DNA of 36,487 nt from a virus. A program made the translations under genes and the position numbers. Shown here one piece after another: positions 13,951 to 32,771 of the stretch. Within the stretch, counting starts at the first letter, position 1. Every line of letters starts with the position of its first letter. The notes beneath the pieces were generated by a model. That model was given only the letters and a program-made list of their open reading frames with translations, searched no databases and had not been told where the DNA came from. The DNA is taken from positions 1-36,487 of IMG/VR virus record IMGVR_UViG_3300034146_000008; one strand, written 5' to 3'.

Positions 13951-13956
13951 TATAAT
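13951..13956 (+). promoter_or_regulatory. perfect TATAAT -10 box 38 nt upstream of the plus-strand tRNA
   Basis: TATAAT read directly. Only a weak -35 (TTGTTT at a 14-nt spacing). Confidence 0.3.
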
Positions 13957-13994: not shown

Positions 13995-14085
13995 GGAGAG
14001 TTGGCAGAGCGGTCTAATGCACCGGTCTCCAAAACTGGCAGATCACTTACAACAGGTCTCAGGGGTTCGAATCCCCTACTCTCCG
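13995..14085 (+). tRNA. class II (long variable arm, Ser-like body) tRNA with anticodon CCA
   Basis: Manual cloverleaf: acceptor GGAGAGT/ACTCTCC, G73, D arm GCA-GAGCGGTCTAA-TGC, anticodon stem CCGGT/ACTGG, loop CTCCAAA, variable arm of about 22 nt with an AGATC/GGTCT stem, T arm AGGGG-TTCGAAT-CCCCT. No encoded CCA end. Confidence 0.8.
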
Positions 14086-14134
14086 CATTGAATAGTATGT
14101 ATATGATATGTACATACATATGTATACACATATG

Positions 14135-14143
14135 TTATTCACA
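14135..14143 (+). promoter_or_regulatory. DnaA box (TTATTCACA, fits TTATNCACA)
   Basis: Read directly. Flanked by 8/9 matches at 14122-14130 (+) and 14161-14169 (-). Confidence 0.5.
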
Positions 14144-14171
14144 TCTACCATGTGTTGACATGTGTATGACA

Positions 14172-14180
14172 TGTGGATAA
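14172..14180 (-). promoter_or_regulatory. perfect DnaA box (TTATCCACA on minus strand)
   Basis: Plus strand reads TGTGGATAA. Confidence 0.55.
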
Positions 14181-14336
14181 ACTTAAATTACCTGTTGTAA
14201 GGTACGACCTAACAGTCGTTGCATGGCCTTAAAAGCCAGAAAATATGAGAATAGCGTGTTTCTTTGAGGTTTGTAGGTGTTCGTAACCTGCCTCAATTAC
14301 GAATCCCGAGTCTTTTACTCGGAAAAGCACACTAAC

Positions 14337-14364
14337 AAAAAAGTCCCCTTTACGGGGCTTTTTT
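14337..14364. terminator. bidirectional rho-independent terminator
   Basis: A6-G(T)CCCC-TTTAC-GGGGC-T6. Confidence 0.6.
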
Positions 14365-14366
14365 GT

Positions 14367-14375
14367 TTATCCACA
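14367..14375 (+). promoter_or_regulatory. perfect DnaA box (TTATCCACA)
   Basis: Read directly, immediately after the terminator T-run. Confidence 0.55.
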
Positions 14376-14418
14376 GTTATTTGATGAAATTTAACTTATG
14401 TGGTGTAGTATAGGTATT

Positions 14419-14571
14419 ATGAAGGTCTATATACAAGCATTTAGTATGGTACTGGTTCTTGGAGGTCTTGTATTTACTCTAGTCGGAATCGGTAACGAAA
14501 CTTTAGAGTATATACTTGGCGGAGGTATTTTAATTGCTACTGGGTTCACCTTATACAAACACACTAAATAA
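14419..14571 (+). CDS. 50-aa two-TM micro-protein (candidate)
   Basis: Hand translation: MKVYIQAFSMVLVLGGLVFTLVGIGNETLEYILGGGILIATGFTLYKHTK. Confidence 0.4.
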   Translation: MKVYIQAFSMVLVLGGLVFTLVGIGNETLEYILGGGILIATGFTLYKHTK

Positions 14572-14572
14572 C

Positions 14573-14719
14573 ATGGTTATAATCATACTTATTGCAATAG
14601 TACTCATCGTCCTCGCTCTTCGCCCATGGTGGAAGCGTCAGATGCGTGACGCCAAACTCAGAACCTTAATAAAGATTTCTGAACAAGGTGAAAAAGAAAG
14701 AAATAGCAACCTAGGCTAA
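14573..14719 (+). CDS. 48-aa single-TM micro-protein (candidate; ORF-track ORF 14534..14719 trimmed to its ATG)
   Basis: MVIIILIAIVLIVLALRPWWKRQMRD... The ATG is 1 nt after the upstream TAA. Its stop overlaps the stop of the convergent gene 14716..16338. Confidence 0.4.
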   Translation: MVIIILIAIVLIVLALRPWWKRQMRDAKLRTLIKISEQGEKERNSNLG

Positions 14720-28040: not shown

Positions 28041-28238
28041 GTACCTAGTTTTGAAAAGAGAAAATAGCCACCGAATTGTTTTAAAATTCATATCTTTGTA
28101 CCTATAAGTCTTTATCCCTTCTTCCCATTTCCTATATGAAGTCCAGTAACCTAAAGGGTTACTCGCTCGCAACTTTCTTCGCATCGTCCAAAATAACGAG
28201 GGATATTTGAATGTAAATAAGTATTTAAGTGTATTCAT
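28038..28238 (-). CDS. hypothetical basic/aromatic protein
   Basis: 66 aa with ATGA overlap to the terL stop. Confidence 0.45.
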   Translation of the reverse strand: MNTLKYLFTFKYPSLFWTMRRKLRASNPLGYWTSYRKWEEGIKTYRYKDMNFKTIRWLFSLFKTRY

Positions 28239-29434
28239 CGTGTTTGTTCAACAGACTGTCGTAAACGTGAGAGCATACGGTCTGCTTTCTCCTGTTCTTC
28301 GTCTACTGTTCCGTCTTTGATAAGCGAAACAAGCGCATATCGTAATGCGTCCATGGTGTGGTCAAAACCTGATTCTGGGATGTTCAGGACCTTGCCGTTC
28401 TTGTCAGTCATCCATAGGTAGTTTCGATACTCCTTAATGACGTTGATAGATCGTTTGGTGACTGAGATGCGTGCGTCTTGAATGACCCCTATACCGTTAC
28501 GGACTGAGTCTGGTCCCTTGTCTGCTCCGACAATTGTTACCCCATAGCTTGCAATGTCATCTATGCTTTTAGGCTCTGCGCTATCAGCTATAACCAGAGC
28601 TGTGTCTTGGCTGTTTAAAATATCTGCGATTTGCTTGTTAGATAGCCCTTTCTTAAAGGTTATTTCGTCTATGATGTAGCCACTGTTGTAGTAGTAAATA
28701 GCTACGATCGCTGTTGGGTCGTTTGTGTATCCAAAGTCGAGACCATAACGCTCAAGTCGTGCCTCGTGAGGTACTTCATCTATGATCTTCCAGTCCTTGT
28801 AAATCTTGCCTTCTACTTCACCTAGCTGACCAAGACCGTACACTTGCCACCATCCTTTACGGCTTTTACGTGCAAGGATAGAGCTCTTAATCTCTTCGGG
28901 AATGCCTTCGTTATCTATAAAGGTAAGGATTATGTGGTCCACGTCTTCGCGTGTTCCTAGTACATCTGTGTAGAACCAGAACTCATTTGTAGGGTTCCAG
29001 TCGAGGAAGATAAACTCTTTGGTACGTACTTCAATTTCATCGAACGCTTCGAGCTTGATGTTGTTTGCTTCATTTAAAAATGCTCTATCACGTCGTCCTC
29101 CACGGAGCTTTGAGTCGTCATCTGCTGGGAAGAACTCTATTTCACTGCCTGTTTCAAAAGTATAGGTTCTATCGGTCACGCTCCAGTTATCCTGCTTCCA
29201 GTATCCATGCCCTTTCATTATGTTCTTAAAGTCACGGAGAGCTCCACGCTTAAGGTGGGGTAGAGACTCTGAAATAACAGACGTAAGCGTAGGACTTGTG
29301 TCTCGTTGAGCCTTATCTATCAAATACGAAAGGATACTGATGGTCTTAGAGCTAGAGGTTCCCCCTTGTACAGCTCTAATCTTCTTCTTCAGGCTCGCTA
29401 CTTTCTTCAGTGCTGTTGTTATCTGGTATTGCAT
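28235..29434 (-). CDS. terL: terminase large subunit
   Basis: 399 aa. Walker A VQGGTSSSKT, Walker-B-like RAFLNEAN, and nuclease motifs GLDFGYTNDPTA, IADSAEPKS and FDHTMDALRYA (PBSX/Terminase_3-like pattern). Confidence 0.9.
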   Translation of the reverse strand: MQYQITTALKKVASLKKKIRAVQGGTSSSKTISILSYLIDKAQRDTSPTLTSVISESLPHLKRGALRDFKNIMKGHGYWKQDNWSVTDRTYTFETGSEIEFFPADDDSKLRGGRRDRAFLNEANNIKLEAFDEIEVRTKEFIFLDWNPTNEFWFYTDVLGTREDVDHIILTFIDNEGIPEEIKSSILARKSRKGWWQVYGLGQLGEVEGKIYKDWKIIDEVPHEARLERYGLDFGYTNDPTAIVAIYYYNSGYIIDEITFKKGLSNKQIADILNSQDTALVIADSAEPKSIDDIASYGVTIVGADKGPDSVRNGIGVIQDARISVTKRSINVIKEYRNYLWMTDKNGKVLNIPESGFDHTMDALRYALVSLIKDGTVDEEQEKADRMLSRLRQSVEQTR

Positions 29435-32578: not shown

Positions 32579-32662
32579 TGCAGGAAGTAGGAGTCGCACC
32601 TACGGAATGCTATGCAAAACGGTTTTACAGACCGCCCCCGCCCTCTACGGGATTACTCCTGC
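32579..32662 (-). tRNA. tRNA-Tyr(GTA)-like, bacterial class II type, with non-canonical spacing
   Basis: Minus strand: GCAGGAG-TAAT-CCCG-TAGAGGG-CGGG-G-GCGGT-CTGTAAA-ACCGT-(TTGCATAGCATTCC)-GTAGG-TGCGACT-CCTAC-TTCCTGC-A. Anticodon GTA, with a variable arm containing a TGC/GCA stem. There are 4 nt (not 2) between the acceptor and D stems. The acceptor helix could extend to 9 bp. No encoded CCA. Confidence 0.65.
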
Positions 32663-32698: not shown

Positions 32699-32771
32699 CA
32701 GATGGGATGAGAATCGAACTCACCGCAGCCAGTTTTGGAGACCAGCTCGCCACCTTGGAACATGCCCACCA
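32699..32771 (-). tRNA. tRNA-Trp(CCA)-like, 73 nt, with irregular D/acceptor geometry
   Basis: Minus strand: TGGTGGG-CAT-GTTC-CAAGGTGGC-GAG(C)TGGT-CTCCAAA-ACTGG-CTGCG-GTGAG-TTCGATT-CTCAT-CCCATCT-G. The anticodon arm and T arm are clean. The 1-72 pair is U-U, and the D stem GTTC/GAGC shares a C with the anticodon stem. Confidence 0.55.

Follow-up and report, generated by a model that had tools for sequence, protein, structure and literature searches.

tRNA bodies that carry a foreign anticodon are known from supD-type suppressors, from the tRNA-Ser(CAG) of Candida and from the V-arm tRNAs of nematodes, which read stop, Leu, Gly or Ile codons and do so without a dedicated RNA regulator. Here we describe a phage gene of this kind, at positions 13995-14085 on the plus strand of IMG/VR virus record IMGVR_UViG_3300034146_000008, whose full length of 36,487 nucleotides is called the window in what follows. 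The gene combines the body of a class II tRNA-Ser with the tryptophan anticodon CCA, and it is followed by a candidate small RNA that is complementary to the variable arm of the tRNA. As in the supD-type and Candida bodies, a seryl-tRNA synthetase (SerRS) blind to the anticodon might place serine at a foreign codon, in this case UGG, and the literature searched gave no natural example of a UGG-reading tRNA-Ser. Serine identity lies mainly in the variable arm, to which G73 and pairs of the acceptor stem contribute in E. coli, and it does not depend on the anticodon; tRNA-Ser molecules with foreign anticodons stay serylated and mistranslate (PMC9976931). The major determinants of the bacterial tryptophanyl-tRNA synthetase (TrpRS) are the anticodon and G73, and the first base pair is also an element (PMC9976931).

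Among described tRNAs, the bacterial allo-tRNAs (Mukai et al. 2017, PMC5389517) share with the window gene the Ser identity elements, namely a long variable arm and G73 or U73, together with non-Ser anticodons. Two of these Ser-identity tRNAs with Leu anticodons have been shown to insert Ser at Leu codons and to arrest E. coli growth, and some are linked to toxin-antitoxin loci (PMC5389517). Their architecture differs, since allo-tRNAs are described there as 8/4 or 9/3 molecules with a long D stem and a tetraloop, whereas the window gene has the standard 7/5 branches of a tRNA-Ser, a D stem of 3 bp and a loop of 11 nt. In the passages of the same paper that a term search brings up there is no CCA example, nor is there a partner RNA antisense to the tRNA (PMC5389517).

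The second RNA of the locus recalls antisense antitoxins, with which the pair shares adjacent genes in either orientation, a strong antisense promoter and a 5' hairpin complementary to a loop of the target. Kissing-loop antisense control is familiar from hok/sok and CopA/CopT, and type VIII-like systems are toxin-antitoxin pairs made of RNA only. The module described here would differ in two respects: it would be directed at a mature tRNA, and what it masks would be an identity determinant read by a synthetase. We know of no antisense pair that targets such a determinant of a mature tRNA, and the literature searched contained none, nor any description of an antisense RNA against a tRNA variable arm or of this two-RNA arrangement. 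Phages also encode structured RNAs that are processed by RNase P and whose loops pair with nearby sites, such as c4 of P1/P7 and CI of P4, but these lack the anticodon and acceptor end of a tRNA, and their targets are downstream mRNAs. The Rfam C4 model has no match to the tRNA or to the small RNA, either at its gathering threshold or at an E-value of up to 5.

A tRNA-Ser body with a tryptophan anticodon

The gene is called by ARAGORN, Rfam and covariance models alike. At its default settings ARAGORN reports a single tRNA for the window, spanning 13995-14086 (+), and puts its anticodon, cca, at position 35; Rfam RF00005 covers 13995-14085 with the full model at 52.6 bits (E = 1.1e-8, gathering score 29), its alignment placing a 20-nt insertion in the variable region. 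The 5' part reads GGAGAGT TG GCA-GAGCGGTCTAA-TGC A CCGGT CTCCAAA ACTGG and the 3' part C-AGATC-ACTTACAACA-GGTCT-C AGGGG TTCGAAT CCCCT ACTCTCC G. These letters fold into a 7-bp acceptor stem (GGAGAGT/ACTCTCC) with discriminator G73 at 14085, a D arm with a 3-bp stem and an 11-nt loop (GCA-GAGCGGTCTAA-TGC), an anticodon stem of 5 bp that includes one G.U pair (CCGGT/ACTGG), a 7-nt loop CTCCAAA (U33-CCA-A37, anticodon at 14029-14031), a 22-nt variable arm at 14039..14060 made of a 5-bp stem and an oversized 10-nt loop, and a T arm with a 5-bp stem (AGGGG-TTCGAAT-CCCCT), in a 7/5 branch configuration. The original prediction, read from the letters without database searches, had described a class II cloverleaf with anticodon CCA at this place, and both programs bear it out; each element that it listed, from the acceptor stem, G73 and D arm to the variable arm of about 22 nt, the T arm and the CTCCAAA loop, is present. 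It had also named an intron or an 8-9-nt loop as possible reasons for a misread anticodon. Neither is present, nor is there another register, and the covariance-model alignment with Rfam rules out an intron or a shifted anticodon.

No CCA is encoded in the sequence 3' of G73, and the features of tRNA-Sec (8/5 branch, UCA anticodon, 6-bp D stem) are absent, RF00005 being the best Rfam family. The minimum free energy fold of the free sequence is not the cloverleaf (z = -3.45); unmodified tRNA sequences usually lack the cloverleaf as their free minimum. A TATAAT box had been proposed as the gene's own promoter and is present at 13951..13956 (+), aligned with TACAAT in a homologous locus described below, but it is not accompanied by a good -35 element: no -35 hexamer fits, and the promoter scan did not list the box.

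The anticodon and the body of the molecule belong to different amino acids. The anticodon is CCA in place of one for a Ser codon (NGA or GCU), and CCA with G73 agrees with tRNA-Trp, but the class I shape of tRNA-Trp, with a variable region of 4-5 nt, and its weak A1-U72 pair are replaced here by 22 nt and a G-C pair. G1-C72, G2-C71, A3-U70 and G73 are all present, as they are in 34/34, 31/34, 31/34 and 28/34 phage tRNA-Ser genes, respectively, and the D arm is of the Ser type (3-bp stem, C11-G24, 11-nt loop GAGYGGNNNAA) with the layout of neighbouring tRNA-Ser genes. Among 882 tRNAs from 120 phage loci the closest are tRNA-Ser(UGA) genes, some of which have an identical GGAGAGT/ACTCTCC acceptor stem and the same layout of C, stem, loop, stem and C in the variable arm. 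Searches of phage and plasmid databases matched only ordinary tRNA-Ser genes. An E. coli tRNA-Ser gave only a weak match of 30 nt.

Isotype scores point the same way. Profile hidden Markov models (HMMs) built from phage class II tRNAs, with the anticodon loop and the T loop masked, gave the body 25.4 bits for Ser and 18.4 bits for long-arm tRNA(CCA), and those for phage class II Leu and Tyr had no match. Covariance models, built like the HMMs from phage tRNAs gathered here and not taken from tRNAscan-SE, and covering Ser and long-arm CCA only, gave 79.7 bits for tRNA-Ser vs 70.5 bits for long-arm tRNA(CCA), even though the CUCCAAA loop is invariant in the latter. Masked HMMs, covariance models, nearest neighbours and acceptor pairs therefore agree with the proposal of a tRNA-Ser body carrying a Trp anticodon, and the comparison of anticodon with best isotype model that had been suggested for it shows the two to disagree. 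The gene is a real tRNA gene: its cloverleaf is canonical and its tRNA-Ser body complete.

A candidate small RNA complementary to the variable arm

If any one feature accounts for this gene, it is most likely the predicted small RNA beside it, which the original prediction had not noticed. For the segment CTTACAACAGGT of the variable arm (14046-14057, +) there is a perfect reverse complement (12/12 nt), ACCTGTTGTAAG, at 14190..14201 (+), 104 nt 3' of the tRNA. This antisense segment is the predicted 5' end of an RNA of about 182 nt (14189..14372, +), delimited by a promoter scan, the terminator and the inverted repeats. The promoter, TTGACA-17 nt-TAAACT at 14155..14183 (+), matches 10/12 consensus positions, and the terminator hairpin, AAAAAAGTCCC-CTTTAC-GGGGCTTTTTT followed by a T run, lies at 14334-14367 (+). 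The tRNA had been described as the only RNA on the plus strand, a statement that does not survive this promoter- and terminator-bounded candidate downstream of it. No Rfam family matches the predicted RNA.

The geometry of the pairing is that of a kissing loop. ACCTGTTGTAAG forms the hairpin ACCU-GUUGUA-AGGU, whose loop is complementary to the loop of the variable arm, and the full pairing covers the loop and the 3' strand of the arm. The predicted duplex has an energy of -18.9 kcal/mol, which 0/500 shuffles reach. The two genes are asymmetric in their promoters, the tRNA having a -10 box only and the small RNA a promoter with 10 of 12 consensus positions. Between them lies an AT-rich palindromic spacer with overlapping repeats (14090..14152; ATGTATA / ACATGTG motifs).

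Co-variation in homologous modules

The closest relative of the window tRNA is found in a metagenome locus, L157. Its variable-arm stem is nearly the same and its three other stems are changed in a compensatory manner; the exact complement of its arm segment, CTTCACGAGGT, also lies downstream. The two loci align throughout, from the -10 box and the tRNA to the TTGAC(A/T) promoter, the complement, the hairpins and the terminator, with the AT-rich spacer of the window appearing as a gap in L157. Their small RNAs have the motif AAAAGCACAYTA in common, and the terminator is GTCCCC-loop-GGGG in both. A third homologue, L172, recurs as an identical stretch in a 246-kb contig (L198), where the module, on what looks like a cellular chromosome, is flanked by a SIMPL-domain gene and a gene for a membrane protein. 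The promoter of the small RNA is kept in both relatives (TTGACT-16-TAATAT in L157, TTGACG-16-TATACT in L172), and in each of the three loci 6 nt separate the end of the -10 hexamer from the antisense segment.

The stem of the 5' hairpin, ACCU/AGGU, is constant in the three small RNAs, while the loops change together with those of the tRNAs. The arm loop UACAAC faces GUUGUA in the window, UCACG faces CGUGA in L157, and GGAA faces UUCC in L172. The L172 duplex extends over 15 nt and contains one G.U pair, which indicates pairing at the RNA level. A consensus fold of the three small RNAs retains little beyond the terminator. The tRNAs of L157 and L172 are ~76% identical to that of the window, with many compensatory changes, and both have the anticodon CCA. 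The suggestion that the middle base of a CGA anticodon had changed is thus not supported as a recent event, since the closest relatives already carry CCA.

Recurrence and specificity of the antisense partner

The arrangement is not confined to these homologues. Genomes with a module include a 3.25-Mb Dehalococcoidia contig (CBDDED010000003.1), Salinarimonas soli (NZ_VUOA01000040.1) and the 246-kb contig, which belongs to ERZ27249449. In 10 loci a match to the variable arm lies 34-122 nt downstream of the tRNA, and it is inverted in 5 of them, with the partner on the same strand, and direct in the other 5, with the partner on the opposite strand and convergent. Duplex energies range from -19 to -31 kcal/mol over the 10 loci, and again 0/500 shuffles reach them. 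Judged by a strict rule, 8/10 loci have a sigma-70-type promoter whose end lies 5-7 nt ahead of the antisense segment, on the strand from which the complementary RNA would be transcribed; such promoters occur at 0.68% of background positions (binomial P ~2e-16), and in the remaining 2/10 a TAGAAT box 4-6 nt upstream was seen by eye. A scan finds a terminator hairpin in 9/10 partner RNAs, which gives predicted lengths of 62-182 nt; that of L183 was seen by eye only. At convergent loci the terminator sits between the two genes.

Specificity was measured with exact or ungapped downstream matches to the variable arm, scored at 10 or more, both raw and with per-locus shuffles; duplex energies scanned along the flanks were set aside as a measure, since in the GC-rich metagenome loci they are low regardless. 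A partner was detected at 10/31 loci with a Ser-signature tRNA(CCA) (8/31 with per-locus shuffles). The corresponding counts were 0/39 (1/39 with shuffles) for tRNA-Ser, 0/25 (0/25) for tRNA-Tyr, 0/41 (0/39) for tRNA-Leu and 2/75 (0/76) for other long-arm tRNA(CCA), so that the raw count is 0/105 for ordinary Ser, Tyr and Leu tRNAs. In the 10 module tRNAs all stems pair, with covariation, and all score higher on the Ser covariance model; common to them are U8-G9 and a D arm GCAGAGNGG...TGC with C11-G24, neither of which was imposed by the search pattern. The same two-RNA module has therefore been shown to recur in unrelated genomes, with a complementarity that is conserved and co-varies.

These loci bear on two other explanations. 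One is an accident, namely a decaying copy of a tRNA-Ser with a mutated anticodon, next to a complement that is due to chance or left over from an inverted repeat in the DNA. The window gene is indeed a single copy in one phage lineage, its relatives do not have it, and the only other contig that carries it is 100% identical. However, the cloverleaf is intact, a 12-nt complement would be expected by chance within 841 nt with a probability of ~0.02 (our own estimate), and 10 loci of different sequence show co-variation, a G.U pair and matched promoters and terminators, which together make an accident highly improbable; chance as such is effectively excluded.

The other is a tRNA-shaped riboregulator outside translation, whose fold would serve processing by RNase P/Z, stability and the display of an antisense seed loop, and which might control or sponge the adjoining small RNA in the manner of c4 of P1/P7 or CI of P4. 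The complementarity lies in an exposed loop with kissing-loop geometry, the 10-nt arm loop is oversized, the partner is always adjacent and the pairing co-evolves, all of which speaks for such a regulator. On the other hand, the 10 module tRNAs keep every feature that aminoacylation and decoding require (several of these features were imposed by the search), Rfam finds neither C4 nor another regulatory family, and the partner RNAs have hardly anything in common apart from the antisense 5' hairpin. In addition, convergent partners run into the terminator of the tRNA and have no downstream gene, so that the tRNA looks like the target and not the regulator. We regard this explanation as quite unlikely. 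A role of the small RNA as leader or attenuator of a downstream gene was rejected, since 5 loci have it running towards the tRNA and stopping at a terminator common to both genes; neither a conserved small open reading frame (ORF) nor a Trp-rich leader peptide was found.

Three of the 10 module tRNAs (L158, L159 and L171) have a 27-43 mismatch that leaves a 4-bp anticodon stem. Such a stem in tRNA-Trp(CCA) has been linked to the reading of UGA (2026 paper, PMC13092985).

Long-arm tRNA(CCA) genes of phages and possible charging with tryptophan

A different reading of the window gene is that it works as a tRNA-Trp, charged by TrpRS through CCA and G73, as the many long-arm tRNA(CCA) of phages presumably are, while the small RNA tunes its level or, by masking the variable arm, insulates it from SerRS. 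Long-arm tRNAs with this anticodon are abundant in phages. A search of IMG/VR with the pattern CTCCAAA, 21-32 nt, then GGTTCGAATCC gave at least 120 loci (L006-L125), at least 103 of them with an 81-92-nt tRNA(cca), in at least 78 distinct sequences, and the literature searched contained no paper that describes long-arm tRNA-Trp in phages. A class I tRNA-Trp accompanies the long-arm gene in 5/103 listed loci, within the stretch examined for each; in most of the loci the long-arm gene is the sole tRNA(CCA) seen in that stretch. TGG means Trp in the phage of the window. For TrpRS the first base pair is only a minor determinant beside the anticodon and G73 (PMC9976931).

The acceptor ends tell another story. 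The phage long-arm tRNA(CCA) share with the window gene the long variable arm, the CUCCAAA loop, G73 and often a Ser-like D arm, but they differ in having A1-U72 or G1.U72, which the window gene lacks, and in having an antisense partner in at most 2 of 75-76. Among the 78 distinct sequences listed, G73 is present in 74/78, pair 1-72 is A-U in 42, G.U in 18 and G-C in 4, one of these four being the window gene's own sequence (from contig L002), and pair 2-71 is mostly not G-C. Long-arm tRNA(CCA) is thus common in phage contigs, with nearly all of the matches listed having Trp-like acceptor ends, and the window gene is a rare Ser-type among them. When Ser-type ends (T70-C71-C72-G73) were required, IMG/VR gave one further real case, L048, on an unrelated contig, and GTDB genomes gave ~11 cases from diverse phyla; in metagenomes, with G1-G2-A3 also required, 33 stretches matched, most of them with such a tRNA.

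This comparison suggests that working long-arm tRNA-Trp genes have shed the Ser determinants, all of which the window gene keeps. Profile HMMs and covariance models both place it with Ser, and a class-I-shaped tRNA(CCA) may already be present elsewhere in the window (32699-32771). A function as tRNA-Trp is for these reasons unlikely in our view, if the strongest competitor to a seryl-charged tRNA.

The loci of the IMG/VR search (L006-L125) also contain long-arm versions (81-94 nt) of His, Lys, Cys, Met, Asn, Arg, Thr, Val, Gln, Gly and Ile(UAU) tRNAs, for example in L020, L034, L051, L069 and L009. To give class I amino acids a tRNA of class II shape therefore seems to be a widespread tendency among some phages. 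Beside some Ser-type tRNA(CCA) genes, in soil metagenome and metagenome-assembled genome contigs, stand further irregular tRNAs that combine a long arm with an anticodon foreign to class II: an 86-nt tRNA-Pro (tgg) in L158, a 90-nt tRNA-Glu (ttc) in L135, and in L166 a cluster of Leu, Cys, Trp and a 73-nt 'SeC' (tca). In this they recall the polycistrons of irregular tRNAs reported by Mukai et al.

A proposed missense tRNA under antisense control

The reading that we favour, with a probability of roughly 40%, is a seryl-charged UGG missense tRNA that is held in check by an antisense RNA masking the SerRS identity element. Since SerRS takes no account of the anticodon but reads the variable arm, G73 and the acceptor stem, the free tRNA(CCA) should be serylated. 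It would then place Ser at UGG and act as a harmful missense suppressor. The antisense RNA would begin with a kissing-loop contact and go on to pair across the variable arm, which would mask or unfold the SerRS identity element or mark the duplex for cleavage and so keep the tRNA silent. The pair would in that case behave like a toxin-antitoxin or switch system made of RNA alone. Charging by SerRS, toxicity, the direction of the regulation and any benefit to the phage are inferred.

In a wider version the mistranslating tRNA would be the toxin and the antisense RNA the antitoxin of an RNA-only module that is mobile, present on chromosomes of bacteria from several phyla and captured by the phage. 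We hold this version to be rather unlikely. The locus has the adjacent genes, the complementary RNA and the co-evolving pairing of an antisense toxin-antitoxin system. As to harm and stability, the promoter asymmetry alone bears on the question, and it is suggestive: the small RNA, with a stronger promoter than the tRNA, would be the antitoxin side, as toxin-antitoxin logic would have it.

Several observations weigh against a seryl-charged missense tRNA. CCA and G73, the major TrpRS determinants, are present, and charging with Trp is possible in part or for the most part. The phage's own ~140 TGG codons would make a decoder that turns Trp into Ser costly, and a missense tRNA leaves the benefit to a seemingly lytic phage unexplained. 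A detectable partner accompanies only ~1/3 of the Ser-signature tRNA(CCA) loci. Every scan of the collections required the CTCCAAA loop, and most also Ser-type ends, which were GGA...TCC-G in the scans of genomes and metagenomes; with CCA fixed in all scans the data give no measure of its role in the module, and part of its conservation among relatives reflects the search itself. The control tRNA-Ser genes came from phage tRNA arrays and thus from environments different from those of the module loci. The second contig with the module, L002, is 100% identical and therefore offers no independent evidence of conservation, and related phages without the module show it to be dispensable.

If the tRNA is seryl-charged, it would be a natural missense tRNA of standard shape for the only Trp codon, carried by a virus. 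The small RNA would be, to our knowledge, the first RNA dedicated to pairing with the synthetase-recognition element of a mature tRNA, and tRNA identity would be controlled in trans by an antisense RNA, a new layer of translation control that would bear on toxin-antitoxin biology and on the conflict between phage and host. It could also provide a compact, programmable on/off handle for engineered tRNAs, given that natural covariation shows the loop-loop pair to be exchangeable at will. Even if the tRNA is charged with Trp, the wide occurrence of phage long-arm tRNA(CCA) and the Ser-type subset with co-evolving antisense partners stand.

The phage and its insertion slot

The window is a phage, with the large terminase subunit (TerL) at 28235-29434 and nearly all genes on the minus strand. 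Its G+C content is 42.7%. Read with the standard code, it is densely packed with ORFs, and all three stop codons are used. TGG accounts for 12.6 per 1000 codons. The 8 TGG codons of TerL align with W in 929/952 homologue residues and never with S, and TGG is therefore read as Trp in this phage. The original prediction had held a simple change of the code to be unlikely, and the TerL columns agree with it; together with the dense standard-code ORFs they rule out a reassignment of TGG to Ser, which we take as effectively excluded. TerL homologues with 66-78% identity are found on many contigs of 33-40 kb, and the close relatives P0035 and P0101 (~37-38 kb contigs) are labelled 'Candidatus Dojkabacteria bacterium' at NCBI, which suggests that the family infects bacteria of the candidate phyla radiation or is binned with them.

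The tRNA(CCA) gene lies on the opposite strand between two large minus-strand genes, among tail genes. Relatives identified through the neighbouring 540-aa and 494-aa proteins (L003-L005, L190-L197) do not have it; at the same site they carry a tRNA-Asp (L197, 15855-15931, -), a 193-aa ORF (L003, 11855-12436, -) or a PG_binding_1 protein (L004, 11603-12658, -). The differing opposite-strand cargo at one position marks the site as an insertion hot spot, and with no relative carrying tRNA(CCA) the gene is a recent insertion into a variable slot. Contig L002, identical over 7365 bp, carries the tRNA(CCA); exact-pattern and neighbour-protein searches of IMG/VR gave no relatives of the phage or of the module. 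The phage captured the module recently, probably from a bacterial lineage with a homologous chromosomal module.

Another reading sees the Ser-shaped tRNA as an anti-defence decoy or replacement, which would soak up or survive a host nuclease that cleaves class II tRNAs or tRNA-Trp. HNH nucleases of type I-A retrons deplete tRNA-Ser (PMC12475279), phage tRNAs can antagonise tRNA-cleaving defences (retron Ec78 and PARIS, cited in PMC12475279), and the phage has up to three odd tRNA-like genes that are absent from its relatives. A decoy would leave the dedicated antisense RNA and the CCA anticodon unaccounted for, as well as the homologous modules that sit among ordinary genes on bacterial chromosomes, and we consider it very unlikely.

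Two further sets of features lie in the window. Two overlapping ORFs of 57 and 61 aa (14398-14571 and 14534-14719, both +), from the ORF list, are hydrophobic and resemble membrane peptides; they lie 3' of the small-RNA terminator, inside the opposite-strand insert, and are not conserved beside the module in L157 or L172, where the downstream content is different. The gene caller marks a 50-aa gene at their site in L002. The covariance models and a relaxed ARAGORN run also pick up two weak tRNA-like genes on the minus strand, which default ARAGORN and Rfam at gathering score miss and which were not found in related phages. One is Tyr-like, with anticodon GUA in the loop CUGUAAA and a variable arm (32579-32662), and the other is the class-I-shaped gene with anticodon CCA in the loop CUCCAAA (32699-32771), which in one register has U1.U72, G3.U70 and G73. 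The G+C content there is 56%.

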